Source of the DNA: an uncultured bacterium
GTDB lineage: Bacteria > Patescibacteriota > Minisyncoccia > Phycocordibacterales > CAIZLB01
Assembly (NCBI GenBank): GCA_903821355.1
Contig: CAIJKW010000030.1
Span: 27,897-91,896, forward strand
Length of the DNA: 64,000 nt
Reading direction: 5' to 3'
The translations under genes and the position numbers were made by a program. Below are positions 1,212 to 49,140 of this stretch, in pieces; within the stretch, counting starts at the first letter, position 1, and each line of letters starts with the position of its first letter. Under the pieces are notes generated by a model, which saw nothing but the letters and a program-made list of their open reading frames with translations, did no database searches and had not been told where the DNA came from.

Positions 1212-2430
1212 TTATTTCTTGTTTTTGTCAACAAAGGCAAGAGCCATCTTTTGTTCCTTAGAATCAAATAGACTTATCTTGAATGTATAACTTTTACCAA
1301 GCTCAAGAGTTTCTTTTAGCTTTGCTTCACTACCAAATTCAGAAACGTGGACTAGTCCTGCGATTCCTTCTTCAATACTTGCAAGTGCTCCGTGCTTGTT
1401 GTACTTAATTACAACTCCAGTGACGACATCGTCTCTCTTGTATTTCTTCTCAGCATCTTTCCATGGGTTTGGCTTAAGAGCTTTGATCGATAGAGAAACT
1501 TTACCATCCTTAATTTCTATAACTTTAACTTTTATTTTTTCTCCAACCTTAAACATTGTACGAGGATCCTCTACAAGTGCCCAGTCAATTTCTGAAATAT
1601 GAACAAGACCTTCTAGGTTTTCTTCAAGTTTAACGAATACTCCAAAGTCAACTGCACCTGTGACAGTTCCTTCAACTTCATCGCCAACAACATACTTACT
1701 TGCAACTTTTTCTTTTTCTCCTCCAACACTTAAGTTTTTCTCTGAGAAAATAAGTTTACCTTCCTTAGGTGAAGCTGCAATGATTGTAACTGAAAGCTTT
1801 TGTCCAACTAGTTTTTTAAGTTCTTCAAGAATTCTATCCTTGTTTCCCTCTTCAACTCTTGGATAATTATCAGCCTTTAGTTGAGACGCTGGAAGGAATC
1901 CTTGAATTCCTTGCCATGCCATAAGAAGACCTCCCTTGTTTGCTTCAAGAACGGGAATATCATAAACAGTATTGTTTTTGATAGCACTTTCTGCTTCACT
2001 CCAAATAAGAGCCTGTTTAGCTTCTTTTAGAGAAAGTTCAATGTAACCATCTGCATTGTTAACTTCTACAACCTTTGCGGCAATACTATCGCCAATATTT
2101 ACTTTTCTTAGAATATCTCTAGCGCTTACATATTCTTTACCAAAAATAATTCCAGTTCCATATGGTTTAAGATCGATAAAAACACCCTTCTTATCAATTG
2201 CTATAACCTTACCCTCCACAATATCAGTTACACTTGGAGGAGTATGTGAGTCTGAAATAATTCTTCCCATCACACTTGCATTCATTTGTGCGATTTTTTG
2301 TGCAGTCTCTTCTTCCGCCTCAGTCATTTCTCTTTTAACCTTAACCTTTGTATCGTCTTTAGCGACACTTGTTGTTGCTTCTAATATTGTATCTTCTACG
2401 ACATTAGTTGCGTTTGTATCATTTGTCATG
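1212..2430 (-). CDS. rpsA: 30S ribosomal protein S1-like, multiple S1 RNA-binding domains
   Basis: Repeated S1-domain motifs (GKVIAIDKKGVFIDLKPYG…, GTVTGAVDFGVFVKLEENLEGLVHISEI, VVTGVVIKYNKHGALASIEEGIAGLVHVSEF). The first ATG is at 2428-2430; the ORF track's upstream TTG (2442-2444) is a less likely start. Confidence 0.8.
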
Positions 2431-2540
2431 AAATAAAAAAACAAGTACTGCTCCTGCTTGGGTCTCTGAATGGCACCGCAGGGGTTACAGTTCTTGGAAT
2501 TGCTAATAATCTGACTTAGGTATTATGCATGTTTTGGCGA

Positions 2541-2665
2541 ATAATTCAAGCCCCCAGCCCAAATACACGTCATCTGAGAGAACGGCGATTTCCTGCTGGA
2601 AATCGCCTCTGCTCACTGCAGTTCGCAAGTCTCTCAAATGACGTGTATTTGGGCTGGGGGACGGT
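2541..2665. repeat. Copy 1 of a ~120-bp imperfect-palindrome structured element (second copy at 16913..17050), upstream of rpsA
   Basis: Outer inverted repeat gcccagcccaaatac…gtatttgggctggg encloses a conserved core aacggcgatttcctgctggaaatcgcctctgctcactgcagttcgcaagtc. Copy 2 shares the outer arms and core. Confidence 0.6.
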
Positions 2666-2822
2666 AACGGTTTGCCAAAATATGCAGAATAAACCTGAGT
2701 TGGTGGGGTTTTAGGGCGGTTTGGAGATTGACAGTGGGGAGGTTGTTGTGGTATGGTTTTGGGGAACAAGCACCTTTAATAATCCAGCGACAGGTGCTTC
2801 AAACCTCAGACAACTCATTTAA

Positions 2823-3128
2823 ATGCACACTCACACAGTTCTTGTTAATGTATTGACATGTGTCTGGTACGTTTTTGTCATCATCTTTTGGATTATCAAT
2901 ACCAAGTTATGTTTACATGAAGACGGCGATGGTGGTGAATCTGATATCTTGTTCGCGTGTCGGTGTATTGGGTACACCTTTTTCACTATCGGACTCATCC
3001 TGATGCTTATCGGTGGTATCGACCGAAGTGATATGACAGCCACCATTAGCGGCTTTGTGCTTTTGACTTTTGGTCATGGCTTGATACTCTATGCACGCTT
3101 AAGACATCTGATGCCTAACGTACAATAA
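2823..3128 (+). CDS. hypothetical small membrane protein
   Basis: 101-aa ORF with 2-3 hydrophobic segments, followed by a terminator. No homology recognised. Confidence 0.35.
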   Translation: MHTHTVLVNVLTCVWYVFVIIFWIINTKLCLHEDGDGGESDILFACRCIGYTFFTIGLILMLIGGIDRSDMTATISGFVLLTFGHGLILYARLRHLMPNVQ

Positions 3129-3135
3129 CCAATAA

Positions 3136-3188
3136 CCCGTCCTGCGACGACACGTGGAAAATCCACCTGTCGCAGCAGGCGGGTTTTT
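3136..3188 (+). terminator. Rho-independent terminator
   Basis: cccgtcctgcgac…gtcgcagcaggcggg hairpin followed by TTTTT. Confidence 0.5.
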
Positions 3189-3274
3189 CAATTGAATAAA
3201 AATTTTATAAAATATTTGGTTATTCTTTATAAAAAATTTATAGAAATATCATCTCATTTTGATACTCTTGCGGG

Positions 3275-3829
3275 ATGGCAAAATCTAAGAAAAATAATAT
3301 TGCATATATTGATGGTGCAAATTTGCATAAGGGAATCAAAACACTTCCTTGGGATTTTGATCATGCAAAATTTAGAGTATGGCTTTTGGAGAAATATAAT
3401 GTAGTTGAAGCTTATATATTTTTAGGATTGGTAAGCAGTGATAAAAATATGGAGTTATATTTAAGACTTGAGTCTCAGGGTTACATACTTATTTTTAAAG
3501 AGGTTGTTGTTAATTCAAACGGAAGGACAAAAGGAAATTGCGATGCTGATTTAATAGTTCTTTTGATGCAACATCTTTATGGGGGTTTATTTGACAAAGC
3601 TATTTTGATTTCTAGCGATGGAGATTATATACCTTTAATTAAATTATTAATTCATGAGAACAAGATTGAGGTTTTGGTATCTCCGTATAACAGAAGTCTT
3701 TGTTCTATTATATTAAGAAGATCCAATGTAAGAATTGTCTATATCGATGATCAGAAATATTTACTTAAAATTGAGAATAATAATTATCTTGAAAATAAAA
3801 AAGCCGCCGATGAAGACGGAACATCATAA
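3275..3829 (+). CDS. NYN-domain (LabA/YacP-like, PIN-related) protein
   Basis: Motifs IAYIDGANLH…GNCDADL…ISSDGDY match the NYN/LabA-like acidic signature. Confidence 0.6.
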   Translation: MAKSKKNNIAYIDGANLHKGIKTLPWDFDHAKFRVWLLEKYNVVEAYIFLGLVSSDKNMELYLRLESQGYILIFKEVVVNSNGRTKGNCDADLIVLLMQHLYGGLFDKAILISSDGDYIPLIKLLIHENKIEVLVSPYNRSLCSIILRRSNVRIVYIDDQKYLLKIENNNYLENKKAADEDGTS

Positions 3830-3970
3830 GTAGCTTTTTTCTATTTGCGCGCGATGTATATATAATAGGTGCGTGCTTTTAAAAAGTCAAGAAAATGAGC
3901 AGCTTTACACCTTAATTATTTCATGTCTAAACTGAATGGGGGTTAAGTGGAGATTGAAAAAGGTTGGAAA

Positions 3971-4630
3971 ATGAGATATAATACTCCCATGATTATTACG
4001 TATTTGGGCCGTGAGGCTGTTAAAATTCAGTATGGAGATTTGGTTATAGCTTTTAATCCGCCAGCAAAGACATCGTCATATAAGATGAATAGATTTGGAG
4101 CTGATATTGCGCTTGAAACATTACCACATGAGGATATGTGTGGAGGATCTGAGATGGTTTATGGGGACAAGAAACCCTTCGTCATTTCTGGCCCTGGAGA
4201 ATATGAGGTGAATAGTATTTTTATAAAAGGTCTAGCAGGAGAGTCCTCATATGATATTGACAAAGATGATCCAAAACTTATTAACACAATATATGCATTA
4301 ACAGTTGAAGGCATTAATATGTTGTATCTTGGTGCGCAAGACGGTCCACTTCCAAAAGACACTGCGGATGCAATTGATTCTGTTGATATTCTATTTTTGC
4401 CAATAGGCGGAAACGGTGTTTTGGATGCAAAAACAGCTTACAAGCTTGCTATGAATTTGGAACCTAAAATTATTATTCCAATTCATTTTGATGGCAAGAA
4501 GGATGAGGCATTAACCTCGTTCTTAAAAGAAGCTGGAGAGCATGGTGACGCTATAGATAAATTAACAATCAAGAAAAAAGATCTTGATGGTAAAAATGGT
4601 GATATAATAGTTTTGTTACCACAACAATAA
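3971..4630 (+). CDS. metal-dependent hydrolase, beta-lactamase fold (UPF0173-like)
   Basis: N-terminus MRYNTPMIITYLGREAVKIQYGDLVIAFNP and C-terminal IIIPIHFD resemble MBL-fold UPF0173 hydrolases. The ORF may alternatively start at 3947. Confidence 0.6.
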   Translation: MRYNTPMIITYLGREAVKIQYGDLVIAFNPPAKTSSYKMNRFGADIALETLPHEDMCGGSEMVYGDKKPFVISGPGEYEVNSIFIKGLAGESSYDIDKDDPKLINTIYALTVEGINMLYLGAQDGPLPKDTADAIDSVDILFLPIGGNGVLDAKTAYKLAMNLEPKIIIPIHFDGKKDEALTSFLKEAGEHGDAIDKLTIKKKDLDGKNGDIIVLLPQQ

Positions 4631-4697
4631 AAGATTTTTAAGCTTAGAAATCACGTTAAAATCATTAGATTTTGACGAAAAAATAAAAAATAAAAAT

Positions 4698-5273
4698 ATG
4701 TTATCAAAACATTTTGAAAAAATAAGGCAAAAATCAGAAAACTATAGAATGGTCTATGCCTTTACTGTGTCCCTTGTTTTTACTGGGATTATTTCAGGTT
4801 TATGGGTCTTTTCAATGTTTATCCCCAATTTCAATAGTGATTCTAATATCGCAAATAGTGCCAATGTCTCTGGCGCAGTTGATGGAAAGGGTGTTGGTGA
4901 GAGTCAAAATTATTTAAGCCCAACTGGCGTTGTGAAGCAGGAAGGTGGAAATATCGTAGATTCTTTTTGGAATGCTATCAAAGGAATAAAAAGCAATCCT
5001 TATATGGGTGGTCAGTTTGAAGTAAGGTCTGACGGCACATCTGGATCAGAGAATTCAAATAAATTATCTACAACAACTGCAAGCGGTATCACAGTAGAAG
5101 TTGGTAATTCAAATAGTGTTGATTCAAGTGTTGGCATTATTGTTCCAAGCGGATCTACCGGTGGTGGTTATGTTAATACTGTGAATTCAGGTGGGGCGAG
5201 CGCAGGTGGTGCGAGTGCGAGCGCAGTTGACGCTGGTAACGTAAATGACACTGACAGCGCTTCAGGAAATTAA
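4698..5273 (+). CDS. hypothetical membrane-anchored Gly/Ser-rich protein
   Basis: N-terminal TM (VYAFTVSLVFTGIISGLWVF) followed by a low-complexity G/S/N-rich region. Confidence 0.45.
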   Translation: MLSKHFEKIRQKSENYRMVYAFTVSLVFTGIISGLWVFSMFIPNFNSDSNIANSANVSGAVDGKGVGESQNYLSPTGVVKQEGGNIVDSFWNAIKGIKSNPYMGGQFEVRSDGTSGSENSNKLSTTTASGITVEVGNSNSVDSSVGIIVPSGSTGGGYVNTVNSGGASAGGASASAVDAGNVNDTDSASGN

Positions 5274-5305
5274 TTATAAATTTAACAAGTAAATAAGACA
5301 AAACA

Positions 5306-7774
5306 ATGGCAAAAAAGATAGAAACTCCAGTAGAAGTGATTTCAGAAAACTCTGACAAAATCCAAGACAGAAATTTATCGCTTGAAATGAGGAAGTCATA
5401 TATTGACTATGCCATGTCTGTTATTACAGATCGTGCTCTTCCTGATATTAGAGATGGACTTAAACCAGTTCACCGTCGTATTTTGTATGCGATGAACGGT
5501 ATGCGTTTGACCGCATCTGCAAAAACAGTTAAGTCTGCCAAAGTTGTTGGAGAGGTTATGGGTAATTATCACCCACACGGAGATGCGGCTATCTATATGT
5601 CTATGGTCAACATGGCGCAAGATTTTACACTTCGTTATCCTTTGATTGTTGGTCAGGGTAACTTTGGAACTGTAGACGGTGATCCTCCTGCTGCTCAACG
5701 TTATACTGAAGCAAAAATGTCACGTCTTTCATCAGAGCTCTTAAGAGATATTAATAAGCAAACAGTTAATTTTGTTCCTAACTATGATGGATCAAGTAAG
5801 GAGCCCACAGTTTTACCTACTGCTGTTCCAAATCTGTTGTTGAACGGAGTTTTGGGTATTGCTGTTGGTATGGCTACAAACTTTCCTCCTCATAATCTAA
5901 GAGAGATTGTGGATGCCACAACTCACTTAGTTGATAATAACGATGCTTCATCGGAAGATTTGATGCAATTTATTAAAGGTCCAGATTTTCCACTTGGAGG
6001 AATTGCTTACAATGAAAAAGATATTGCAACCGCATGTATTCATGGAAGAGGCGGAGTTGTGGTTCGTGGTGAAGCTGAAATTATTGAAGAAAAAGCTGGT
6101 CAATCAAAAATTGTAATTACTTCAATCCCGTATCGCGTTAATAAATCGACTCTCATTGAAGCTATTGCTGATCTAGCTCGTGAAAAGAAACTTGAGGGTA
6201 TTAAAGATTTGCGCGATGAGTCAACAAAAGACATTAGAATTGTTATTGAATTAAAGAGTGGAAGTTATCCTCAAAATATTTTAAACTTCCTATACAAGCA
6301 CACGCAACTTGAATCAACTTTCCACTACAACATGGTCGCGCTCGTTGATGGTGTTCCGCAAACTCTCTCTATTAAGTCATGTTTGGAAGAATTTATTAAG
6401 CACAGAAAAGAAGTTATTAAGAGAAGGACAGAGTTTGATTTAAGAGAAGCACAAGAAAGAGAACACATTTTACTTGGTTTGAAGAAGGCGTTGGATCATA
6501 TCGATGCAATTATTAAAACCATTAAGGCTTCAAAAGATACTCCTACAGCTCATGTAAATTTGATGAAGGAGTTTAAGTTCTCAGATAGACAAACTACCGC
6601 TATTTTGGATATGAAGTTGCAAAGACTTGCGGGACTCGAAAGAAAGAAAATTGAAGATGAGTTGAAGGCCGTTCAAGCATTCATCAAAGAGTGTGAAGAC
6701 ATTTTGAAAAATCCAAAGAGAGTTTTGAAGATTATCAAAGATGAGCTTGCTGATATTAGAGAGCGTTTTGGTGATAATAGAAGGACAAAGATTATTAAGC
6801 ATGCAGCAAAGAACTTCTGTATAGAGGATGTTATCCCAGATGAGGAGAGCGTGCTTGTGCTTACAAGTGGCGGATATATTAAGAGAACTGATCCTGATGA
6901 ATACAGAAAGCAAAAAAGAGGTGGTGTTGGTGTAGTTGATTTGGATACTAAAGAAGAGGATTTTATAACTCATCTTATAACAACAACAACTCATAGTGAT
7001 TTGCTGTTCTTCACAGATAAAGGAAAGGCATATCAGATAAAGATGTACGATATTCCAGAGGGTAAGCGTGCTACTCGTGGAAAATCTATTATGAACTTTT
7101 TGTCTCTTTCTGATAATGAGAAAGTGACGTCTGTTCTGCCAATGCCAAAAGAAATTAAAAAGGGAAGTGGTCTTAGTTTGTTCTTGGTTACAAAGCAGGG
7201 AACTGGAAAGAAAGTATCAGTCGAGAGCTTCTTGGATGTTAGAAGAAGTGGAATCATTGCAATCAGACTTGATGCGGGAGATGAGTTGGTTTCCGCTTCA
7301 TTTGTTGAAAAGAAAGATTCTGTGATGGTTGTTGCATCTGATGGTCAGTCTATTAGATTTGACGAAGGTGATGTTAGAGAAATGGGTCGATCTGCTGGAG
7401 GTGTGCGTGTAATGAAATTGGATAAGGATGTGAGTGTCGTTGGAGCTGACACTATTGCAAAAGACGTAACTGATGCAACTGTGATGGTCATGTCTTCAAA
7501 TGGTTATGGAAAGAAAACTCCAATTAAGGAATATAAGATTCAAGGTCGCGGCGGAAGCGGAATCAAGACTGTGAAAGTCACTCCAAAGACAGGGGACTTG
7601 ATTTCTGCAAGAATTCTAACAGCAGGGCTTGAAGAGCTTGTTGCGATTTCAAAGAAGAGTCAAGTTATCAGATGTGATTTGAAAGAAGTTCCAACTCTTG
7701 GACGTGATACACAGGGTGTGAGAATTATGAAATTGCGCGAAGGGGATGGGTTGGCTTCATTGATTTGCTTATAG
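5306..7774 (+). CDS. gyrA: DNA gyrase subunit A
   Basis: Classic GyrA N-terminus ([33 protein letters not shown]), 822 aa, C-terminal beta-pinwheel repeats. Confidence 0.95.
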
Positions 7775-7808
7775 TCTTTATTTAAGTGTAAATAATATGA
7801 GACGTGGA

Positions 7809-7844
7809 AAGGGCCGCCGGACGAACGTCCGGCGGCCCTTTTGA
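7809..7844 (+). terminator. Rho-independent terminator after gyrA
   Basis: aagggccgccggacg-aacg-tccggcggccctt followed by TTTT. Confidence 0.7.
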
Positions 7845-7873
7845 TATCACGCAATTTGTTTCTGGATCAGGCT

Positions 7874-8377
7874 TTAACTCAGGCACAAGCTGAGGAGGTG
7901 GTGATGTGTGTTGTCGAGATCGAGTTCCCAGTCATATTTGACCATCACTCCATACTCCCTACGCAGTCCATGTGGTCCATCATCAATCTCCGGTGCAAAG
8001 TGCATAAGAATTGTACCCAGGAGGGTGCTCGATTCGTCCGTGTTATTAATCACAATCACATATGCACCGTTCTCAGCGGCGGACATGCGTTCTTTGATTA
8101 AAGAAGTAACACTTTCTTTGGTGAGTCCACCTCCATTCAGTTGAGAGACAATCTCGATTTCAGCGCCAAGCCCGGTAGATAAGATTTTGGTAGTCAGCCT
8201 ATCGTCTTTTCTTCCGGCCAAGAGGTGAAGCGGCATATCTCTCTTCTTGGTTTTGATTCTCTTCGCAAGCCTTCTGGTCCTTTCGCATATTGATGATTTG
8301 TAAAGATCCCGTTCCGTTATGTCAGATTCTTCTGGATTGGGGGCGCAAACTATTCCGTAAATTCTGATTTGGCTCAT
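7874..8377 (-). CDS. hypothetical protein (GC-rich, possibly acquired)
   Basis: 167-aa ORF with noticeably higher GC than its neighbours. No motif recognised. Confidence 0.45.
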   Translation of the reverse strand: MSQIRIYGIVCAPNPEESDITERDLYKSSICERTRRLAKRIKTKKRDMPLHLLAGRKDDRLTTKILSTGLGAEIEIVSQLNGGGLTKESVTSLIKERMSAAENGAYVIVINNTDESSTLLGTILMHFAPEIDDGPHGLRREYGVMVKYDWELDLDNTHHHLLSLCLS

Positions 8378-8596
8378 CTTGTGAAAATCTAGGTAACCGC
8401 CTAGTCGGGTTCAGGTTCTGAAATACAATATCACAAAAGTTCTTTGTGTAAAGAATTCAGCTTTGGAGAATCGTCCAAACGAAGATTCTGGTGACGATTT
8501 AGCAAAATCGCCACGGGGCTCGCCTACCGGGCGGTTTTGGAGAATCGTCCAAACGACGATTTTGGAGAATCGCCTACCGGGTGATATAATATTTAC

Positions 8597-9130
8597 ATGA
8601 GTTTTGTTCAACCAAAAAAGACATTGCATGATATGAATATTGCAGAAGGTATGACTGTTGTGGATTTTGATGCGGGTGCTGGATACTATACGATGGCACT
8701 TGCAGAAAAAGTTGGTTCACATGGAAAAGTTTTTGCAATTGATACCCGCGGAGATTTACTAACTAGGATTGCAAATGAAGCAAAAATTCTTCATCATAAA
8801 AATGTGGAAGTCATGAGGGGAGACATTGAGTCTCCAAATGGTTCAGGTCTTTTGAATGAAAGTGTAGACAGGGTTGTGATTGCAAATACATTATTTGTTT
8901 GTGACTATCCAGAGCGGGCAGTTAAGGAATCGATAAGAATATTGAAAAATAAGGGCAAAATTGCCGTCATTGACTGGTTAGATTCCTTTAATCATTTTGG
9001 TCCACACCCAGATTGTATAATTCCTAAAGAACATATCATTGCATGGTTTGCTAAAGATGGCATGGCACTAGAAAAAGAATTTGATGCAGGGGAATACCAC
9101 TATGGCCTAGTGTTTAAATTTAAAGATTAA
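8597..9130 (+). CDS. class I SAM-dependent methyltransferase
   Basis: VVDFDAGAGYYT is SAM-binding motif I (GxGxG). 177 aa is a typical size. Confidence 0.65.
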   Translation: MSFVQPKKTLHDMNIAEGMTVVDFDAGAGYYTMALAEKVGSHGKVFAIDTRGDLLTRIANEAKILHHKNVEVMRGDIESPNGSGLLNESVDRVVIANTLFVCDYPERAVKESIRILKNKGKIAVIDWLDSFNHFGPHPDCIIPKEHIIAWFAKDGMALEKEFDAGEYHYGLVFKFKD

Positions 9131-9146
9131 GTTATAATATTTATAT

Positions 9147-10493
9147 ATGAATAAATCATCGAGTCCTTTTCAAATCATTCTCATCGGAGTATTTATTTTT
9201 GCCGCTGTCGTTGGAGTTATAATTTTTGCCGCTTACACAAACTCTTCAAATAATTCTGCGGTAAAGGCAACAGTTTGGGGAACGGAGTCAGAAGATGACT
9301 TTAAAAATCTGATGGCTATTGTTGATCCACAAAAAAAAGCAATGGATGTAGTTTACGTACAAAAAAATGTTGATACATTTGAGTCAGAATTTGTTAATGC
9401 GCTTGCAGAGGGAAATGGTCCAGATCTTGTTTTGATCGATGATTCAAAATTGTTTTCTTGGAAGAACAAATTGCAACCCCTTTCTTTTAAGACTTTACCA
9501 CAAAGGACCTTCGCTGACACTTTTATTGATTCTGCTAACACTTTCATGACAGCTGACGGTGTTTACGCTTTACCATTTAACGTTGATCCTCTGGTGATGT
9601 ATTGGAATAAGACGATGTTTAGCGATGCTGGCATAGTTTTACCTCCAAAAACTTGGCAAGAAATGACTTCGGAGATTCCTAAACTAACACAGAGGACAGA
9701 TAGATCTGAAATAATAAAATCTACCGTTGCTTTGGGTGAGTCTTCAAACATCGATCATTCAAAAGAGATTTTTATTAACCTGATGCTTCAAGGGGGAAAT
9801 AATTTAATTCAATTTGATCCAAATACAAGCAGATATGTTTCTACGGCAAACACAGCTTCTGCTTCCGGAGTCAATGTTTTTGAAGCTGCAACAAATTTCT
9901 ACACTTCATTTTCTAATCCAAACAATGAAAGATATTCATGGAATAAGTCTCTTGTAAGTTCAAGGGATGCATTTGTTGCAGGAAATTTAGCAATATATTT
10001 TGGATATGCTAGTGAATATCCAGTTCTACAACGCAAGAATCCTAATTTAAATTTTGATGTTGCGGTTATGCCACAAGATGCAGATAGATCCTCCGGAGTT
10101 CAAGCGACTTCTTATGCAAAAATAAATGCCTTAGCTTTAGTTAAGCAATCTAAAAATCAATCAGCTGCAGTTAGTATGATGACACAATTAGTTGCATCTG
10201 GTGCACAAAAAGAATTAATAAAAATTACCAATTTACCATCAGCAAGAAGAGATCTTCTTTCTATTTCCGATGTAACTAATGCCTATACTGATGTCTTTGC
10301 TAGGGCAGCTATTCAGTCAAAGACATGGACTGATCCTAATCCAACAGCCACAGATTCAATGTTTAGAGAGTTGATTGATAATATTACGACAGGTAAGGTT
10401 TCGGGTAGTGAGGCAAGGAATACGCTAAATCAAAAACTCGAAGTTCTTATTGCTGGAGCAAATCCAAATAGTGTGAATTCCACAGGCAATTAA
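9147..10493 (+). CDS. extracellular solute-binding protein family 1-like, N-terminally membrane-anchored, no cognate permease/ATPase nearby
   Basis: N-terminal TM segment. GNGPDLVLIDDSKLFSWKNKL and YALPFNVDPLVMYWNKTMFSDAGIVLPPKTWQEM resemble SBP_bac_1 signatures. Confidence 0.55.
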   Translation: MNKSSSPFQIILIGVFIFAAVVGVIIFAAYTNSSNNSAVKATVWGTESEDDFKNLMAIVDPQKKAMDVVYVQKNVDTFESEFVNALAEGNGPDLVLIDDSKLFSWKNKLQPLSFKTLPQRTFADTFIDSANTFMTADGVYALPFNVDPLVMYWNKTMFSDAGIVLPPKTWQEMTSEIPKLTQRTDRSEIIKSTVALGESSNIDHSKEIFINLMLQGGNNLIQFDPNTSRYVSTANTASASGVNVFEAATNFYTSFSNPNNERYSWNKSLVSSRDAFVAGNLAIYFGYASEYPVLQRKNPNLNFDVAVMPQDADRSSGVQATSYAKINALALVKQSKNQSAAVSMMTQLVASGAQKELIKITNLPSARRDLLSISDVTNAYTDVFARAAIQSKTWTDPNPTATDSMFRELIDNITTGKVSGSEARNTLNQKLEVLIAGANPNSVNSTGN

Positions 10494-10511
10494 AATATTT
10501 AGTGTGGTATA

Positions 10512-10991
10512 ATGAAATTAATAACTTATATGATTAAAAATATGAAAATAACAAGGAATAAAAAGTTTTCTATGTTATTAGTTGCATTTACTATATTTGC
10601 TTCATTCTTTACTTTTATATCCAGTACTTCTGCTGCTACTACTGCCAATACAGCCGGTACAAATCCAGTCTCGGCTGTTCTGTTGAGATGTACTCAATCT
10701 GGAGTCGCTTGTGGTTTTAATGATTTTATAAGTCTAATAAATGGCATGATTCAGTATGGAATTGAATTAATAGGGATAGCATTTGTTATTGCCTTACTCT
10801 ACGCAGGTTTCTTGTATTTGACTTCGGGTGGTGACCCTTCAAAAGTCAAAAAAGTTAGAGATGTTCTCTACAAGATCATGTGGGGTATGGTATATACACT
10901 TTGTGGTTGGGTTATTGTATACTTTATAATAAAGAGTTTAGGTGTTCCAGTATCTTTTTACAATGGTCAATACGGACTTTTAAACATATAA
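10512..10991 (+). CDS. small secreted two-TM membrane protein (paralog family member 1)
   Basis: Signal peptide, then core IGIAFVIALLYAGFLYLTSGGDPSKVKKVRDVLYKIMWGMVYTLCGWVIVYF (TM, short charged loop, TM). Confidence 0.5.
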   Translation: MKLITYMIKNMKITRNKKFSMLLVAFTIFASFFTFISSTSAATTANTAGTNPVSAVLLRCTQSGVACGFNDFISLINGMIQYGIELIGIAFVIALLYAGFLYLTSGGDPSKVKKVRDVLYKIMWGMVYTLCGWVIVYFIIKSLGVPVSFYNGQYGLLNI

Positions 10992-10993
10992 AC

Positions 10994-11443
10994 ATGAAAA
11001 AAATTAGATTTATTTTATTTACGATTGTCGGTGCGGTAGTTTTGTTGTATGCAAGTAGTGCCAGTATAGCAAATGCAGAATTGTCTCTTCCTTGGGAACA
11101 AAGTAACGTTAATGCGTCTGCTGCTATAACACCTGTGCCGGTGACAGCCGCCGGATCATGCGCAACTGGAAAGATTTGTAATCCATTGGGTACAACAACA
11201 ACACTTAATCAAGTGTTAACTATTGTCATATCTACAGTCCAAGTCATTGCCGGTATATTGTCTGTTGTCTATCTTATTTTAGCCGGACTTAAGTTTGTGC
11301 TTGCAGCCGGCGACCCAGGAAAAATAACAAAAGCCAGAGCAATGCTTTTGTATGTCGTCATCGGTATAGCAATAATATTTGGCGCACAAGCCATATCCTT
11401 GGTCGTTCAGAATACAATTAAACAGGTGGGTAGTGGGCAATAG
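10994..11443 (+). CDS. small secreted two-TM membrane protein (paralog 2)
   Basis: MKKIRFILFTIVGAVVLLYASSASIANA signal peptide. Core VIAGILSVVYLILAGLKFVLAAGDPGKITKARAMLLYVVIGIAIIFGAQAI. Confidence 0.5.
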   Translation: MKKIRFILFTIVGAVVLLYASSASIANAELSLPWEQSNVNASAAITPVPVTAAGSCATGKICNPLGTTTTLNQVLTIVISTVQVIAGILSVVYLILAGLKFVLAAGDPGKITKARAMLLYVVIGIAIIFGAQAISLVVQNTIKQVGSGQ

Positions 11444-11494
11444 TTAATTGGACGAAGGATTATTCGTAAAAATTAGAAAAATAATAAGAAAAAA

Positions 11495-11809
11495 ATGCCA
11501 GATATAAAAAATTCTTTATCAGCTCAGGTTAGTAATGTTACAGACCTTAGAAGCTTGGTGGCTAGTTTGATCGATATGATCAGATACTACATCGTGCCGT
11601 TTATTATAGCCCTAGCTCTGATGTTCTTCTTGTGGGGATTATTTAAAACGATAACAGCAGCTGGCGACGGTAAAAAGAGGCAAGAGGGTATGGCTTACAT
11701 AACATATGGAATCATCGGCCTTGCTGTGATGGTTTCTGTTTGGAGTTTGGTATATCTTTTAACCTCAACGTTCTTCTCTAACGGCTTATTAATCCCTCAA
11801 CTTAATTAG
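11495..11809 (+). CDS. small two-TM membrane protein (paralog 3)
   Basis: FIIALALMFFLWGLFKTITAAGDGKKRQEGMAYITYGIIGLAVMVSVWSLVYLLTS. Confidence 0.55.
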   Translation: MPDIKNSLSAQVSNVTDLRSLVASLIDMIRYYIVPFIIALALMFFLWGLFKTITAAGDGKKRQEGMAYITYGIIGLAVMVSVWSLVYLLTSTFFSNGLLIPQLN

Positions 11810-11843
11810 TTTTCTTAAATTTAATTTTTTAATATAAAATAAA

Positions 11844-12137
11844 ATGACAAATGGACTTAGAGGTTTGATACTTTATCTAAATAGATTTATAGGTGCGATA
11901 ACGGCCTTTATCATTTCCTTGACGCTAGTATTTTTTCTCTGGGGTGTATTTAAATTGATTTTTTCAAACAAAGACTCAAAAGAGAGAGAGCAAGCAAAAG
12001 GGTTTATTGTTTGGGGACTAGTTGCTTTGTTTGTTATGATCTCTGTTTGGGGGTTGGTGAATTTGTTAACCAGTTCTTTTGGTTTTGGTAACGTCAATCC
12101 CATGTCTCCACAATTTCCAAATTCGCGCCTTATATAG
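11844..12137 (+). CDS. small two-TM membrane protein (paralog 4)
   Basis: FIISLTLVFFLWGVFKLIFSNKDSKEREQAKGFIVWGLVALFVMISVWGLVNLLTS. Confidence 0.55.
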   Translation: MTNGLRGLILYLNRFIGAITAFIISLTLVFFLWGVFKLIFSNKDSKEREQAKGFIVWGLVALFVMISVWGLVNLLTSSFGFGNVNPMSPQFPNSRLI

Positions 12138-12274
12138 TAACTTGAGGACAATTTGATTTATAAATATGTTTATATCTCTGTTTATATCTTTTGAATATTA
12201 AGGTATAATAGCGATAAGTGACATTACTGTTGCTTACATAAATATAAGCTTATCATTTAATAAAAAATTTAATT

Positions 12275-12592
12275 ATGAATAATCAACCTGGAATTAGTGG
12301 ACTTTACGCTCTATTGGCTCAAGTCACAGATTTCGTTAATAGACTGATTCCTTTTATCATCGGTCTTACAGTTCTATTCTTCTTGTGGGGAATTTTTAAA
12401 CTAGTTTTCTCAGCAGATTCTGATGCAAGAGCAGAAGCTAGAGGATACATCATTTGGGGAATCATCGGTCTTGCTGTAATGGTTTCTGTTTGGGGATTAG
12501 TAAACCTTTTGACAAGTACATTCAGTCTGAACTCAAACGTTCCTCCACCACCTGGTATTCCATCAGCAGGTGGAACAATTCAATTGAGATAG
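12275..12592 (+). CDS. small two-TM membrane protein (paralog 5)
   Basis: FIIGLTVLFFLWGIFKLVFSADSDARAEARGYIIWGIIGLAVMVSVWGLVNLLTS. Confidence 0.55.
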   Translation: MNNQPGISGLYALLAQVTDFVNRLIPFIIGLTVLFFLWGIFKLVFSADSDARAEARGYIIWGIIGLAVMVSVWGLVNLLTSTFSLNSNVPPPPGIPSAGGTIQLR

Positions 12593-12639
12593 TGTGTCAG
12601 TTTTGAATAGGTTTTTACTCTTGAATAATAAAAATAATC

Positions 12640-12930
12640 ATGTCAAATGTACCACCCGCATTGGCTTCTCTTATAAAAGGGATAGATAGATATGTCATAA
12701 ACCCTCTAATTGTTCTGGCTTTTGCTATTGCTATGGTAGTTTTTCTCTGGGGCGTTTTCAATTATGTAAGAGGAGCGGGGGATCCAAAAGCAAGAGAAAC
12801 AGGCAGAAGTCATATACTATGGAGTCTTATCGGTATGGCAATAATGTTTTCTGTTTTTGGGTTAATGACGATTATCTCAAATACGGTTGGTGGTCCAACA
12901 GGTAATATTACAAATATTCAGAAGCTCTAG
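12640..12930 (+). CDS. small two-TM membrane protein (paralog 6)
   Basis: LIVLAFAIAMVVFLWGVFNYVRGAGDPKARETGRSHILWSLIGMAIMFSVFGLMTIIS. Confidence 0.55.
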   Translation: MSNVPPALASLIKGIDRYVINPLIVLAFAIAMVVFLWGVFNYVRGAGDPKARETGRSHILWSLIGMAIMFSVFGLMTIISNTVGGPTGNITNIQKL

Positions 12931-12960
12931 TAGGTTAGGAAGCAACACGTTATAAGATGA

Positions 12961-12991
12961 AAAGCGCGAAGGGTTGTCCTTCGCGCTTTTT
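12961..12991. terminator. Bidirectional rho-independent terminator closing the small-protein array
   Basis: aaagcgcgaagg-gttgt-ccttcgcgcttt with A-run upstream and T-run downstream. Confidence 0.7.
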
Positions 12992-13042
12992 TCAGTGGTG
13001 GTGGAGATGAGATTAGCGCAGATCGTTGGTTCTCACATCCTC

Positions 13043-13465
13043 TTAGGAGTTGTTGACGAAAGGTTTCTCGTCTGTCACTCCCGTGAGGTAATCCTGCCAA
13101 GCACATCTTTGAATGTATTTTGACCTTGCCCACGATTGAAATAGATGGTTTTTCTGATCGTCCGTTGTGCATTTCTCCAGTGCTTTTTGCATCGATGGGG
13201 AGATGGAGTCACCCTTTAGACTGTTATTGTAGTTTCTGCCCTCTTCTTTTGAGAGCTCAGACAATCTTCGAAAGAACCTGAGCAGATATTCAAGTGCGTC
13301 AATCTTTGCTATCCGTTTTTTTGAATAGTGTTTTGATTCTGCAAGGTATCGGTCAATAATACCTGACATCTGCCTTAGACTTATGGGTTTATTCTTTGGT
13401 AGTGTAAAACTTTGGATTCTCGATTTCATCTTGCTTTCTGGTGGAAAGAACAGGTGCCCGAACAC
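13043..13465 (-). CDS. hypothetical protein
   Basis: 140-aa ORF with slightly elevated GC. No motif recognised. Confidence 0.4.
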   Translation of the reverse strand: MFGHLFFPPESKMKSRIQSFTLPKNKPISLRQMSGIIDRYLAESKHYSKKRIAKIDALEYLLRFFRRLSELSKEEGRNYNNSLKGDSISPSMQKALEKCTTDDQKNHLFQSWARSKYIQRCAWQDYLTGVTDEKPFVNNS

Positions 13466-13555
13466 CCATACTTAGTTGGTGTTGTGGAGCTTTCGGGAAC
13501 TCATTTGCTGGTAGTATAGCATAAGTGGGTGGAAGTCAAGCATGATAAATAAAAT

Positions 13556-13587
13556 AAAAAATATGCAGACTTGCGTCTGCATATTTT
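13556..13587 (-). terminator. Terminator downstream of the minus-strand tRNA cluster
   Basis: Palindromic hairpin atatgcagac-ttgc-gtctgcatat flanked by A/T runs. Confidence 0.55.
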
Positions 13588-13594
13588 TCATGTG

Positions 13595-13676
13595 TGGGCG
13601 AGGAGGGACTCGAACCCTCAATCCTTACGGAACTAGTTCCTAAGACTAGCGCGTATACCAATTCCGCCACTCGCCC
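13595..13676 (-). tRNA. tRNA-Leu (anticodon UAG)
   Basis: Reverse complement GGGCGAG…CTCGCCCA forms a cloverleaf with anticodon loop CTTAGGA, a long variable arm and T-loop GGTTCGAGTCC. Confidence 0.8.
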
Positions 13677-13791
13677 ATATTTTGACTTTGCTTTATATCA
13701 GCTTTTTGGTTTGCTGAAATTTAAGAATTCAATATCTATATGAAGTTTAAGATTCTGGCTTAAATGTCTTCATAGAGTTATCGAACTCTTG

Positions 13792-13864
13792 TCCGCCCGG
13801 TAGGATTCGAACCTACGACCGTTCACTTAAGAGGCGACTGCTCTACCAACTGAGCTACGGGCGG
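13792..13864 (-). tRNA. tRNA-Lys (anticodon CUU)
   Basis: Reverse complement CCGCCCGTAGCTCAGTTGGTAGAGCAGTCGCCTCTTAAGTGAACGGTCGTAGGTTCGAATCCTACCGGGCGGA. Anticodon loop CTCTTAA. The top pair of the anticodon stem is non-Watson-Crick (G·A). Confidence 0.7.
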
Positions 13865-13926
13865 ATATGTTCATTATAGTAGCAAAAAAAGGTATTTAAT
13901 ACAACTATTTACGATCATGTTTGTAA

Positions 13927-14241
13927 CTATAATTCTAAGAAGATTATTGAGCAAATTCCTAGAACCATACCGACAATTTGAAGCGGGCTTAATCCTTCGT
14001 GAAAGAATACGTAACTTACCAGCAGTAATGTAGCGACGTTAAATATAACAAATATTATTGAAGCGATAGCTATGTTTTTGTATTTGAAACTAAAAGATAG
14101 AAATATTAAGGCTATTACATAAATTATTAATCCAATGACAAAAAACCAAGTGTTATTTTTTGAAACCCATTCTTTCATAAAAATATCCCCAGCTGTTAGA
14201 ACTAAACCTCCCGCTAAAACTAAGATTATCCCAGTATTCAT
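13927..14241 (-). CDS. small multidrug-resistance/DMT-like 4-TM membrane protein
   Basis: 104 aa with four hydrophobic helices (SMR/EamA-half-like topology), embedded between tRNA genes. Confidence 0.45.
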   Translation of the reverse strand: MNTGIILVLAGGLVLTAGDIFMKEWVSKNNTWFFVIGLIIYVIALIFLSFSFKYKNIAIASIIFVIFNVATLLLVSYVFFHEGLSPLQIVGMVLGICSIIFLEL

Positions 14242-14249
14242 TTTATTGG

Positions 14250-14332
14250 TGCTCAGGGCGGGACTCGAACCCGCACAGGCTTTCGCCTACAACATTTTAA
14301 GTGTTGCGTGTCTACCATTCCACCACCCGAGC
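14250..14332 (-). tRNA. tRNA-Leu (anticodon UAA)
   Basis: Reverse complement GCTCGGGTGGTGGAATGGTAGACACGCAACACTTAAAATGTTG… Anticodon loop CTTAAAA, long variable arm, T-loop GGTTCGAGTCC. Confidence 0.8.
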
Positions 14333-14800
14333 TTTTTTATTTAAGCCTCTATGAGTTGGCTGTAAACTGTGACAATTTGGACAAAGTATCTGTAGGTTAG
14401 TTAGTCTATTGTCTCTACTATCACCGTTTATGTGATCTAACTCAAGAGGTAATCTACCATCTTTTGTGGTTTTGTTCCACCCGCACATCTCACACTTTTT
14501 TTCCTTTAAACCATCTTTAAATAATCTTTTCTTAAGTTTATAACTTTGAAATGAGCTGCCTTTTACTAAAATTTCTTTAGTTGGAATAAGTGGTATTTTA
14601 TTTTAAAATTTTTTGCCCTTACTCCAACCTCTGCCTGTAAAATGTTTTATGGATAGGCCGTATTCTAAAACATATTTCTTGATTTGAGAATAGTTTCCAC
14701 CAGCTTCAACTAATCCAAGTCTTTTCAAAACTTGTCTATAGCTTGTGGAATCAGCAACTGATTTTATTAAATTGTCTTTTGACCACTTTCTTTTTCTCAT
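14312..14800 (-). pseudogene. HNH endonuclease gene interrupted by a single in-frame TAA (plus 14603-14605); C-terminal part overlaps tRNA-Leu(UAA)
   Basis: Upstream ORF 14606..14800 (MRKRKW…SKGKKF*) is in the same frame as a downstream reading frame. That frame encodes …CEMCGWNKTTKDGRLPLELDHINGDSRDNRLTNLQILCPNCHS…, a canonical HNH motif. Confidence 0.6.
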
Positions 14801-14841
14801 TTAAGAATAACAAACAAATATGTAAAAACTACTTTTACATG

Positions 14842-14914
14842 AGGCGTAGGCCGGGATCGAACCGGCGTATAACGATTTTGCAGATCGCCGCGTTAACCAC
14901 TTCGCCACTACGCC
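14842..14914 (-). tRNA. tRNA-Cys (anticodon GCA)
   Basis: Reverse complement GGCGTAGTGGCGAAGTGGTTAACGCGGCGATCTGCAAAATCGTT…GGTTCGATCCCGGCCTACGCC. Anticodon loop CTGCAAA. Confidence 0.8.
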
Positions 14915-14956
14915 AAACCTCTACATTAAAGGGTCTATACTCACAACTAACTTTTG

Positions 14957-15292
14957 CTATTTTAGCATTCTGTCTATATTCTGTCTATTGATTTCGCCGA
15001 TATCTATTTTGAAATTAAAGAAGGGAATTATGCCCAACTTTGAATGACTTTTAACATAACTTCTGAATTCATTGCATTTTCTGTTGGCAAATTCTTCAAC
15101 CACAGGACCTTTGTCCTCAGGAAGAACACTAAGAAGAATTGTGGCCTTCTTGGCTCTATCGCCAAGAATAACATTGGTCACAGTTACAAGGGAAGTTCTA
15201 TTAGCTTCTCTTGCCATAAATTCCATCGCCAATTCTTTGACGATGTGAATTGTTCGCTCATCTCTATGTGGTTTTACTATTTTTTCTCTCAT
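14957..15292 (-). CDS. rbfA: ribosome-binding factor A
   Basis: 111 aa located immediately downstream of infB, the usual infB-rbfA order. Sequence is RbfA-like (…NRTSLVTVTNVILGDRAKKATILLSVL…). Confidence 0.7.
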   Translation of the reverse strand: MREKIVKPHRDERTIHIVKELAMEFMAREANRTSLVTVTNVILGDRAKKATILLSVLPEDKGPVVEEFANRKCNEFRSYVKSHSKLGIIPFFNFKIDIGEINRQNIDRMLK

Positions 15293-15313
15293 ATTTTTTG
15301 TGATCAGGTCGCG

Positions 15314-16894
15314 TTATTTAACAATCTTATGGAACGGCTCCAACTTATCTCCCGCAGCAATTTCCATTTTAGATTCAATCATTGTTCCAAATTCTTTTCC
15401 CTCCTCAACAGTACTAGTTTTTTCCTTTTGTTGTTGAAGCTCCCTTACTCTTCCTCGACCAATTTCAATATCTCTTCTTAAAATCTTAACTTCATCGTTA
15501 AAAGAAATTGAACCAGATTCAACTCTTCCTCCAATCACTTGTTTTTCTTTATTAACACTAAAAATCTTGAGGACCTTTATTGTTCCTTTAGATTCTTCAA
15601 TTTGAGTTCTGGGTCTATTCTCTTCAGCAAACTCCTGTAACCATTCTGTCATTTTATAGATGATGTCGAAGGTCATTATGTTGATACCATTTCTCTCCGC
15701 TAGGCTTTTTGCGCTACTATCAATCTTTGTATTAAATCCTAGGATAACGGTCCCCTCTTTTCCGGAGGCTAATTTGATGTCATTCTCTAATATATCGCCA
15801 ATACTTATTGCAACGATTTTTATTTCCACGTTATCAACCTTAATTTTATTTTCTATCTCATACACGACTGCGGCGGCAGATCCTGATGTATCGGCTTTAA
15901 TTATTACAGGTACAATGGCTGTCTGAATAATTTCTTGACCATTCTCAAAAGCAAGAGCGTTTGCTTTGTTTGTTGCAGCAATCTTTTCTGCTCCACGAAC
16001 TTTTTTGATAGCCTCTGCTCTTTCTCTTACTTTTTCTATTTCTTCTTCAACATAAGCTTCAGCAGCTTTCTTGCTTCCAAAAGTGAAGCAAATTCCACCG
16101 ACTTCTGGTTCATCTGTCCAACCAATAACCCTCACAGGTTTTGAAGGGCCAGCTTCTTTTAGTTGCTTACCCAAAAAATCTTCCATGATTCTAACAGGGG
16201 AGAGTGCTGTACCTGAAACAATGAAAGAACCGTTATATAATGTACCGTTTTTTACGATGAGAGTTGCTGAAATACCCCTTATCTTGTCTCTATTTGCCTC
16301 TATAACAACACATTCTGCTTCAGTGAAAGGATCACCACTTATGCCGTCAACCTCAGCTGTTAGAAGAATTAAATCAAGAAGATCATCAACACCTTCACCT
16401 GTCTTACCAGAGAATGCAATCCATGGAATATTTCCTCCGTAACCCTCAACATAGATTTCATTCTCTGCTAATGATAGCTTAACTCTATCAATATCTGCGT
16501 TTGGTTTATCGATTTTACTAATCCCAACAATGAATGAGAGCCCTGCATTTTTGATTGCGTTAAGGGCGTCTAATGTTTGCGGTTTAACACCATCTTCAGC
16601 AGATACTACAAGAATTGCAATATCAGCTGCTGTTGCTCCTCTTGCTCTGATTGCGCTAAAGGATTCATGCCCAGGAGTGTCAATAAAAACGATGGTCTTT
16701 TCATCTTCTTTACCATTAGCATCCATTGCCTTATGAACTACTTCATAAGAAGACATTCTTTGTGTAATTCCACCCACTTCTTTATCAACTACATTAGTTT
16801 TTCTGATGTAGTCAAGAAGTGTTGATTTACCGTGGTCAATGTGGCCCATTACGACAACTACCGGCGGTCTAGGATCTAATGTGGTGATTTCCAT
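15314..16894 (-). CDS. infB: translation initiation factor IF-2 (short form lacking N-terminal domains)
   Basis: GTPase G-domain VVVVMGHIDHGKSTLLD…DTPGHESF…; 526 aa; domain order matches IF-2. Confidence 0.9.
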   Translation of the reverse strand: MEITTLDPRPPVVVVMGHIDHGKSTLLDYIRKTNVVDKEVGGITQRMSSYEVVHKAMDANGKEDEKTIVFIDTPGHESFSAIRARGATAADIAILVVSAEDGVKPQTLDALNAIKNAGLSFIVGISKIDKPNADIDRVKLSLAENEIYVEGYGGNIPWIAFSGKTGEGVDDLLDLILLTAEVDGISGDPFTEAECVVIEANRDKIRGISATLIVKNGTLYNGSFIVSGTALSPVRIMEDFLGKQLKEAGPSKPVRVIGWTDEPEVGGICFTFGSKKAAEAYVEEEIEKVRERAEAIKKVRGAEKIAATNKANALAFENGQEIIQTAIVPVIIKADTSGSAAAVVYEIENKIKVDNVEIKIVAISIGDILENDIKLASGKEGTVILGFNTKIDSSAKSLAERNGINIMTFDIIYKMTEWLQEFAEENRPRTQIEESKGTIKVLKIFSVNKEKQVIGGRVESGSISFNDEVKILRRDIEIGRGRVRELQQQKEKTSTVEEGKEFGTMIESKMEIAAGDKLEPFHKIVK

Positions 16895-16912
16895 TTAAGT
16901 CTTAATATATAA

Positions 16913-17050
16913 TATTTTTTACGATTTGGCAAACCGCCCAGCCCAAAATACGGCCCATTGGGAACACGGAGATTTCTTGCTAGAAATCTCCTCTGCTCGT
17001 TGCAACTCGCAAGTTTCCCAATGGGCCATATTTTGGGCTGGGCAAACTAC
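16913..17050. repeat. Copy 2 of the ~120-bp structured palindromic element, immediately upstream of infB
   Basis: gcccagcccaaaatac…ggagatttcttgctagaaatctcctctgctcgttgcaactcgcaagtttc…gtattttgggctgggc. It shares the outer arms and core with the copy at 2541..2665. Confidence 0.6.
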
Positions 17051-17082
17051 CAATATCGTAAAAATCTATAGAGGTTTTATAA

Positions 17083-41348: not shown

Positions 41349-41375
41349 AATTTTTTTAACGGCAAATAATAAAGC

Positions 41376-41410
41376 TCTCTCTAAGGTCACATATTGTGAC
41401 CTTAGAGAGA
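41376..41410. repeat. 35-bp palindrome tctctctaaggtcaca-tat-tgtgaccttagagaga (downstream of ORF6N)
   Basis: 16-bp arms with a 3-nt centre. Same core GTCACA/TGTGAC as the intragenic copies. Confidence 0.75.
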
Positions 41411-41431
41411 CGGCTAACAATAATGATCTGT

Positions 41432-41456
41432 TTGATATCACAAATTGTGATATCAA
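41432..41456. repeat. 25-bp perfect palindrome ttgatatcacaa-a-ttgtgatatcaa
   Basis: Exact symmetry; same family. Confidence 0.75.
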
Positions 41457-41483
41457 GTTTGAGGCTAAAAATATACCTAAATT

Positions 41484-41508
41484 TTGAGGTCGCAAATTGC
41501 GACCTCAA
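41484..41508. repeat. 25-bp perfect palindrome ttgaggtcgcaa-a-ttgcgacctcaa
   Basis: Exact symmetry; same family. It lies about 35 bp from the topA stop. Confidence 0.75.
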
Positions 41509-41541
41509 GATTTCGAATATGTATAAGGTAATGAGCAGGAT

Positions 41542-49116: not shown

Positions 49117-49140
49117 TTGCAACGCTTTCAGCCAGCTAGT

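Follow-up and report, generated by a model that had tools for sequence, protein, structure and literature searches.

A stretch of 64,000 nucleotides from an uncultured bacterium of the Patescibacteriota (contig CAIJKW010000030.1), referred to below as the window, carries two copies of a long palindromic DNA element, copy A upstream of rpsA, the gene of ribosomal protein S1, and copy B upstream of infB, the gene of initiation factor IF-2. Both belong to a previously undescribed family of palindromic repeats of about 110 bp, which are intergenic and occur in a small clade of Patescibacteria. In this family pairing is preserved through double changes alone, the palindrome extends into the flank of its particular locus, and close relatives differ by the loss, halving or rearrangement of copies or by their disruption by an insertion sequence (IS). 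We consider it probable that the element is a lineage-specific, dispensable and dispersed intergenic DNA repeat, with a lifestyle like that of the repetitive extragenic palindromes (REP), the enterobacterial repetitive intergenic consensus sequences (ERIC) and the miniature inverted-repeat transposable elements (MITEs). Its self-complementarity would be maintained at the level of the DNA, with no need of selection on an RNA, and the element would be selfish or at most modulatory.

In the window, each copy folds into one long hairpin, in which a near-perfect stem of about 30 bp bears a conserved three-way centre on top. The sense strand is defined as the strand reading TTGCGA..TGCA..GAGCA, which in the window is the minus strand, as for rpsA and infB. 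Copy A occupies positions 2551..2660 on this strand, with the 5' arm of the long stem (P1) at 2630-2660 and the 3' arm at 2551-2581. Its centre holds hairpin P2 at 2609..2628 (UUGC-GA-AC-UGCA-GU-GA-GCAG, with a tandem G·A step) and hairpin P3 at 2584..2607 (GGCGATTTCC-AGCA-GGAAATCGCC, a 10-bp stem with an AGCA loop). Copy B occupies 16936..17043, also on the minus strand, with the P1 arms at 17014-17043 and 16936-16965, P2 at 16993-17012 and P3 at 16968-16991. These palindromes are slightly narrower than the ranges given in a preliminary description of the window, which had otherwise read the anatomy correctly. It had reported two hairpins in the same orientation, with a near-identical core that forms its own hairpin, shared outer arms, and an inner stem that is variable and complementary. 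Copies A and B are oriented alike and align over about 140 columns with 80% identity; they have the outer 14-16 bp of their arms in common, and the inner stem differs yet stays complementary. The 10-bp hairpin of the core shows two compensatory changes between the copies, and an indel (AAA/TTT versus AAAA/TTTT) is present in both arms and is thus symmetric. The RNA folding energies are -72 to -82 kcal/mol, with z-scores of -12 to -14.5, and the DNA folding energies are -44 to -50 kcal/mol. The core motifs occur at two sites in the 64 kb, namely copies A and B, where shuffled sequences are expected to give about none, and a covariance-model scan with the filters off found no third copy in the window. 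Both copies stand upstream of minus-strand genes and are co-oriented with them, as had been described: the S1 gene (coding sequence 1212-2429) and the gene of a short, 526-aa form of IF-2 without the N-terminal domains (15314-16894). Homologues assign the window to the Patescibacteria, among Paceibacteria-like bacteria of the candidate phyla radiation.

The two copies are members of a larger family. A scan of metagenomes with the core pattern returned at least 27 true copies on 26 contigs, and the same scan of GTDB species genomes returned 1 true copy (L022, a bin of an uncultured bacterium) among the 24 matches listed. The core pattern had no match in viral contigs, nor did copy B by blastn against phage and plasmid collections. 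The covariance model R1 was built from 31 copies; copies A and B score 101.6 and 102.3 bits against it. Scanning related loci with such a model, a step proposed in the preliminary description, brought out more copies, and the alignment of the family shows massive compensatory double changes. On the fetched loci R1 gave 10 further matches, of which 2 are intact and the others diverged or partial, and the family now totals about 40 copies, in metagenomes of related Paceibacteria-like genomes. Searched against Rfam 15, the sequences matched only tRNAs at the gathering threshold, and only generic long-hairpin (miRNA-precursor) noise at the E-value threshold. As far as our searches could tell, the literature on repeats and structured RNAs of the candidate phyla radiation (CPR) describes no comparable dispersed repeat family.

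All members share one architecture. The element measures about 110 bp, and up to about 200 bp with its degenerate outer arms. P1 is an almost perfect stem of 25-33 bp whose sequence differs at every locus, and it encloses a conserved, asymmetric three-way junction with the two small hairpins. P2 has the form UUGC-GA-NN-UGCA-NN-GA-GCAG, with a UGCA loop and a tandem G·A step, and its NN/NN pairs covary across the family (AC/GT, GT/AC or GC/GC). P3 has a 9-10-bp stem and an AGCA loop, and only short linkers (AC, AG and CGU(G/U)) join the helices at the junction. In one subfamily P2 and P3 are separated by a third hairpin (L034b, L049b, L062 and L064; related loci are cited here by such numbers). 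This inside-out design is unusual, in that the asymmetric centre is conserved and the stem drifts freely while remaining perfectly paired. The search pattern fixed much of the core, so that the invariance of the core is partly ascertainment and the set of copies is biased; loci fetched through their S1 or IF-2 proteins, a route unbiased for the element, do show mutated cores. Additionally, many copies are orthologous and not independent, so the counts overstate independence, and the contigs are short metagenome assemblies in which chimeras at repeats are possible.

The pairing of the element is kept with great strictness. The alignment of 31 sequences contains 1085 pair cells, of which 97.4% are Watson-Crick, and in a shifted-register control pairing falls to 37-49%. 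Double changes affect 28 of the 35 pairs (339 cells), and one-sided changes are almost absent. Pair 20-74, for example, is G-C in 16 copies, A-U in 15 and G·U in none. Among 812 informative pairs of the P1 stem in 32 copies, 793 are Watson-Crick, 10 are G·T and 9 are A·C, which gives no strand bias. The two window copies each have one mismatch in the stem, which reads as G·U on the gene-sense strand; this had suggested such a G·U as a family trait, and the family-wide ratio of 10 to 9 rejects it. Orthologous copies are 48-86% identical in their P1 arms and 45-67% identical in their upstream non-coding flanks. The arms diverge about as fast as the non-coding flanks, which rules out hyper-mutation of the stem; judged from these identities, the stem sequence drifts roughly neutrally while its complementarity stays. 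The element is a clean natural example of how massive compensatory covariation can come from the maintenance of a palindrome in DNA, and not necessarily from a functional RNA.

A variable stem around a conserved motif might also be thought to carry targeting information, as in a stem-loop unit of the TIGR type, a snoRNA-like guide or the precursor of a short guide. TIGR stem-loop arrays, in which variable palindromic stems flank conserved motifs, are also found in Parcubacteria (PMC12045711). The resemblance is superficial: the architecture is TIGR-like in outline and P2 has tandem G·A pairs, but there is no box C (RUGAUGA), no box D (CUGA) and no unpaired spacer, and the copies are solitary. 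No gene for a Nop-domain or Tas protein was present among the 47 window open reading frames (ORFs) scanned. Exact 21-22-mers from the variable arms of both window copies were unmatched in 2.9 million viral contigs, and the stems drift like neutral flanks. We regard a guide RNA as highly improbable.

The preliminary description had offered, as one of two readings, that the element is a cis-regulatory RNA in the 5' leaders of rpsA and infB. Leaders of ribosomal-protein genes, including the autoregulatory S1 leader, are likewise structured and near translation genes. The leader reading fails, however, because of the position, the specificity and the conservation of the element. As to position, both copies are separated from the start codon by a promoter-like site that relatives conserve; all promoters and transcription starts given here are predicted from sequence, not mapped. 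The predicted rpsA promoter (TTGAAT-16-CATAAT, 2522..2549, minus strand) is sigma-70-like, begins 1 nt beyond the 3' end of copy A and is kept in 12 relatives as TTGAAT/TTGTAT...CATAAT/TATTAA. The predicted infB promoter (TTGCCA-17-TATATT, 16904..16932, minus strand) is also sigma-70-like and starts 3 nt 3' of copy B. Only 9 nt separate its -10 box from the ATG at 16894, and with this promoter the infB mRNA appears nearly leaderless. The arrangement, at 16892-16932 in the window, is kept in L001, L002, L004, L043 and L068, and the promoter is conserved with or without the element.

The rpsA gene has a separate, conserved 5' untranslated region (5'UTR) of about 90 nt (2430..2515, minus strand), which lies outside the element, is structured, and has a U-rich tract and no Shine-Dalgarno sequence before the ATG at 2429. 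This region is nearly invariant across 11 relatives. Its helix CAAGnACUG/CAGUACUUG surrounds CCCCUGC/GCAGGAG, with one compensatory change from U-A to C-G in L059, and the region has no match in Rfam. It is this 5'UTR, and not the hairpin element, that is the candidate autoregulatory leader of S1, so the analysis separates the putative true rpsA leader from a look-alike hairpin. The predicted starts place the copies outside mRNA leaders, in intergenic DNA that is untranscribed or reached by read-through. The most frequent place is on the upstream side of a predicted -35 box, at a distance of 1-30 nt, and a good number of these promoters belong to strongly expressed genes of translation.

Specificity and conservation point the same way. 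The element also adjoins at least 12 unrelated genes and the 3' ends of tRNAs. Nine copies lie between divergent genes, 12 between tandem genes (8 co-oriented, 4 anti-oriented), 5 between convergent genes and 3, all orthologous, at the 3' end of a tRNA-Arg. At the same genes in close relatives the element is missing, halved or degenerate. Unlike the known leaders of ribosomal-protein genes, it stands upstream of the promoter, is not gene-specific and can be lost, and the search of Rfam with both copies for leader models returned no family.

A broader version of the RNA reading would make the element a structured RNA of some other kind: an intercistronic or leader element acting in cis, a small RNA processed from the stem (e.g., by RNase III), or a hairpin like those of REP sequences, terminating or stabilising the read-through transcripts of either strand. 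The fold is very stable, it covaries, and its loops and junctions are conserved. The lone mismatch in both window copies is a gene-sense G·U, read-through from the upstream gene would transcribe the 8 tandem co-oriented copies, and copy B occupies the place of an ordinary terminator after the upstream gene in L004 and L068. Even Watson-Crick-only pairing would be favoured if hairpins were needed on the transcripts of both strands. Against this stand the near-equal numbers of G·U and A·C across the 32 copies and the near absence of one-sided changes. There is no conserved promoter 5' of the element and no U-tract after it, and the downstream promoters lie 3'; across the copies between divergent genes no transcript is expected. 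Rfam has no match, and half-elements persist in place. Taken together, this makes a structured RNA distinctly unlikely. An intrinsic terminator was considered separately and rejected, since a terminator scan found 0 sites around both copies and the 3' flanks lack a consistent T-run.

The probable DNA-level maintenance of the repeat is best seen in its flanks. Beyond the stem, the flanks form imperfect inverted repeats that are specific to the locus: what is mirrored is the promoter region downstream of the copy at that same locus. This flank palindromy exceeds that of every non-matching flank pair in 8 of 31 copies, and the top 5% in about half. At copy A, the degenerate outer arm (2661..2705, minus strand) repeats, inverted and imperfectly, the stretch 2506-2550, which holds the promoter spacer, -10 box and +1 region of rpsA; here ACTCAGGTTTATTCTGCATATTTTGGCAAA mirrors ACTTAGG--TATTATGCATGTTTTGGCGAA; its mirror score is 34, and non-matching flank pairs reach 28 at most. 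At copy B, the degenerate outer arm (17044..17070, minus strand) has TTTTTACGATATTGG mirroring the infB promoter spacer TTTTTACGAT-TTGG (16910-16935); the spacer and the -35 box are both mirrored, and the mirroring is more extensive at L001. Because the infB promoter is unchanged in element-free relatives, local copying from arm to arm best accounts for the inverted copy on the far side.

Together, the mirrored flanks and the paired changes are the signature expected of intrastrand template switching. Quasipalindrome template switching is established in model organisms (PMC7202029). The hotspots described in E. coli, yeast and human represent a mechanism and not a repeat family, by which imperfect inverted repeats become perfect in one replication step (PMC7202029). 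They have been demonstrated experimentally in model organisms only; for the present element we infer the process from the pattern of variation. The hairpin would form and then, probably, undergo intrastrand template switching, as quasipalindrome correction or arm-to-arm conversion. A switch of this kind would carry a change over to the opposite arm in a single step, and could extend the palindrome outward.

Turnover among close relatives argues for a dispensable repeat. At infB, the element is intact in the window, in L001 (IF-2 84% identical) and in L068 (89%); L043 keeps a remnant of the 3' arm only; and it is absent from L004 (95%), from L002/L003 (83%) and from the P0003 contig, in which the spacer is just 44 nt. 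It is thus absent or decayed in 4 of 7 relatives. At rpsA, the element is intact in the window, L033, L035, L041, L048 and L067, variant or degenerate in L059/L060, L062 and L064, cut to the promoter-proximal (3') half in L057 and L061, and absent from L063, which makes it halved or absent in 3 of 12 relatives. The S1 protein is identical in L061 and L062, and the state of the element differs between them. In L064 (1290-1410), whose S1 is 96% identical to that of the window, a 5' arm identical to that of L048 precedes the core and 3' arm of L049b; this hybrid reflects either recombination between variants or an assembly chimera. Upstream of its rpsA, L049 (1002-1254) has two copies that face opposite ways and are separated by 60 nt. 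In L043 an IS of the rve family (DDE type, 3330-4640, with a 407-aa transposase) sits inside the 3' arm of a copy whose twin in L030 is intact; the inverted ends of this IS contain AAAGTACACCCAAA and are unrelated to the element.

Some non-orthologous copies within one genome have common outer arms, namely the rpsA and infB copies of the window and the typA and rpmF copies in L036, L039, L030 and L038. Such sharing points to exchange between copies or to recent duplication. The filled and empty pairs compared for an insertion site (L001 against L002 at tRNA-Leu/pilin, and L068 against L004 at infB) have flanks too diverged to delimit one.

The surroundings of the copies raise the question of promoters. 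Outward promoter-like sites within 30 nt are found on the 3' side of 12 of 31 copies, versus 2 of 32 on the 5' side (Fisher p = 0.002). Inward-facing sites are rare (3/32 and 2/31 copies), and inspection of the 5' flanks showed nothing conserved, on which grounds a small RNA driven by a promoter of its own was rejected. The co-oriented downstream genes comprise 12 independent cases: rpsA, infB, rpsL, rpmF, typA, nusB, secG, murG, an HlyD-like gene, an S41 peptidase and two of unknown function. Five or six of the 12 are related to the ribosome or translation, and according to which of these counts is taken the binomial p is 0.0005-0.02 for a baseline of 10-15% and 0.0005-0.07 for a baseline of 10-20%. 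The association with translation genes that the preliminary description had proposed thus survives as a statistical tendency, with many unrelated genes beside it, and it may simply reflect strong promoters.

These observations support a functional DNA element upstream of promoters, in the form of an extrudable cruciform with a three-way tip, situated at about -40 to -150 of strong promoters. It could be a control, supercoil-sensing or insulating module for growth genes (translation, secG, murG), or the place where an architectural protein binds. In those 12 of 31 copies a -35 box follows the 3' end at a distance of 1-30 nt, compared with 2 of 32 on the 5' side; translation-related genes follow at 5-6 of the 12 independent loci, and Watson-Crick-only pairing fits a DNA structure. 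Moreover, the promoter-proximal arm is kept in 3 of 3 half-deleted remnants, and the position upstream of rpsA is retained in at least 11 genomes. The element is dispensable, however, being lost or halved where the downstream proteins are identical or 95% identical, and about one third of the copies face the 3' end of a gene or a tRNA, with no promoter. Anything from 1 to 29 nt separates the element from the -35 box, and the arm adjoining this box is G+C-rich and not UP-like. The proximal arm may persist in remnants because larger deletions would take the promoter. On balance we hold this explanation to be unlikely, though deserving of some weight. An effect on the promoter, by insulation, supercoil buffering or protein binding, or an effect on read-through transcripts, is possible.

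Compared with known repeats, the family agrees with each in part. MITEs such as Correia/CREE, RUP and Nezha are, like the element, small, non-coding and dispersed, show presence/absence polymorphism, and sometimes supply or adjoin promoters. The element is in fact small, non-coding and multi-copy, with filled, empty and remnant sites at infB and rpsA. MITEs differ by their conserved terminal inverted repeats, target-site duplications and parent IS. The REP sequences of Proteobacteria, with the bacterial interspersed mosaic elements (BIME) and REPIN, are also extragenic, multi-copy and lineage-specific, keep their hairpins by compensation, and may affect transcript ends or DNA topology. They consist of a conserved short palindrome, set as inverted pairs about a variable spacer, have a 5' GTAG, lie at gene 3' ends and have a RAYT transposase as partner. 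The present element, in contrast, is a variable palindrome around a conserved centre, prefers the upstream side of promoters and has no GTAG, and no RAYT gene is found among the window ORFs scanned. The ERIC sequences, or intergenic repeat units (IRU), of Enterobacteria are imperfect palindromes of about 127 bp; they are of the same size class, form a single long hairpin, are intergenic and non-coding, and have no known transposition mechanism. ERIC variants with internal insertions parallel the four-way variant of the element. By their description ERIC copies are set apart, being highly similar over their full length, usually in transcribed regions, and in a different phylum. An integron attC site would have R''/R' core sites (RYYYAAC/GTTRRRY), extrahelical bases, a variable centre and a neighbouring integrase or cassette array. 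Inspecting the alignment led to its rejection, since the ends vary, the stems lack extrahelical bases and it is the centre that is conserved; the window has no integrase.

The second reading of the preliminary description, a small mobile hairpin repeat favouring promoters, is essentially what the data show, except that no transposition signature accompanies it. This belongs to a set of observations that weigh against the dispersed repeat we prefer. Conserved terminal inverted repeats are lacking, since the outer part of P1 differs by locus and the conservation is at the centre. Target-site duplications are also lacking, as the longest flanking direct repeat averages 2.6 nt versus 2.55 nt in mismatched-flank controls, and the flanks are inverted, not direct, repeats. 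No transposase, HUH, reverse transcriptase, integrase or Nop domain was found in 47 of the approximately 61 window ORFs. The centre is far better conserved than the stems, which, though partly ascertainment, hints at selection or specific recognition. Promoter orientation bias and enrichment of translation genes suggest a function or a targeting rule, neither of which a purely neutral repeat needs. The promoter preference itself becomes 8/20 versus 2/20 (p = 0.065) when orthologous loci are collapsed. Finally, promoters and transcription starts are predictions, template switching is deduced and not observed, and orthologous copies are non-independent.

For the dispersed repeat, the conserved centre is the only candidate site of recognition, and dispersal could proceed through recognition of this centre or recombination at it. 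A bolder proposal, which we consider rather improbable, is that the family represents either a new structure-based DNA element acting in cis, or a new class of mobile element that moves as a single-strand hairpin, is recognised via its centre and is targeted upstream of promoters. If the former were true, the three-way centre would nucleate the extrusion of a hairpin or cruciform in the negatively supercoiled DNA behind strong promoters. The expression of rpsA, infB, rpsL, rpmF, typA and nusB would then be coupled to supercoiling, in reduced CPR genomes that are poor in classical regulators.

To our knowledge, CPR genomes are small and the group has no cultured, genetically tractable members. 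In the genomes of this clade the family marks the promoters of highly expressed genes, and R1 is a covariance model ready for annotation. If the promoter association is functional, it would suggest a structure-based control of translation genes.

Several other repeats were seen in the window. The patch at 8460-8590 holds three 20-nt units (GRCGRTTT-AGCA/TGGA-RAATCGYC), two copies of TCGCCTACCGGG and a 33-nt direct repeat, and lies directly upstream of a TATAAT box and the ATG of a methyltransferase gene. The preliminary description had seen in it a related inner hairpin, which is weakly supported by one 20-nt unit, GACGATTTAGCAAAATCGCC, resembling P3 minus 2 bp; the patch as such is a separate repeat cluster, scoring 9.9 bits (E=3.3) against the family model. 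It is not a family member, and may be a second small repeat type with the AGCA-loop hairpin in common. The module CCTACYGGGCGGTTTAGCAAAACCGCC recurs in L043, exactly at the broken arm of the element, and related modules are found at L043 4594-4640. A gene with an ORF6N domain (40722-41348) has perfect palindromes of 31-35 bp, of the type AAGTCGCAAtTTGCGACTT, in its 5' coding part and just downstream. They lie at 40981-41015, 41034-41064, 41376-41410 and 41479-41513 (region 40940-41515). The palindromes between 40981 and 41513 have TTGCGA in common with the family; they are part of the ORF6N gene, and the covariance-model scan excludes them as members.

The long intergenic region 49130-49400 carries a pair of direct repeats of about 40 nt (49130-49215) and a palindrome with CACATGTG at its centre (ATATATCACATGTGATATAT; model match at 49226-49249). 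Next comes a promoter-like TTGACA, followed by a foldable, G+C-rich stretch that contains an AGCA-loop hairpin (49325-49344). The region is upstream of a small ORF and of a ZIP zinc transporter gene (49865), and is possibly a metal-regulator operator or leader. Between the two element copies, six small genes on the plus strand (10512-12930) are syntenic with genes of relatives that resemble those of type IV secretion system (T4SS) pilin and TrbC. After this array comes a cluster of four tRNA genes on the minus strand (13594-14914), and the gene order is kept in L001, L002, L057 and L063.

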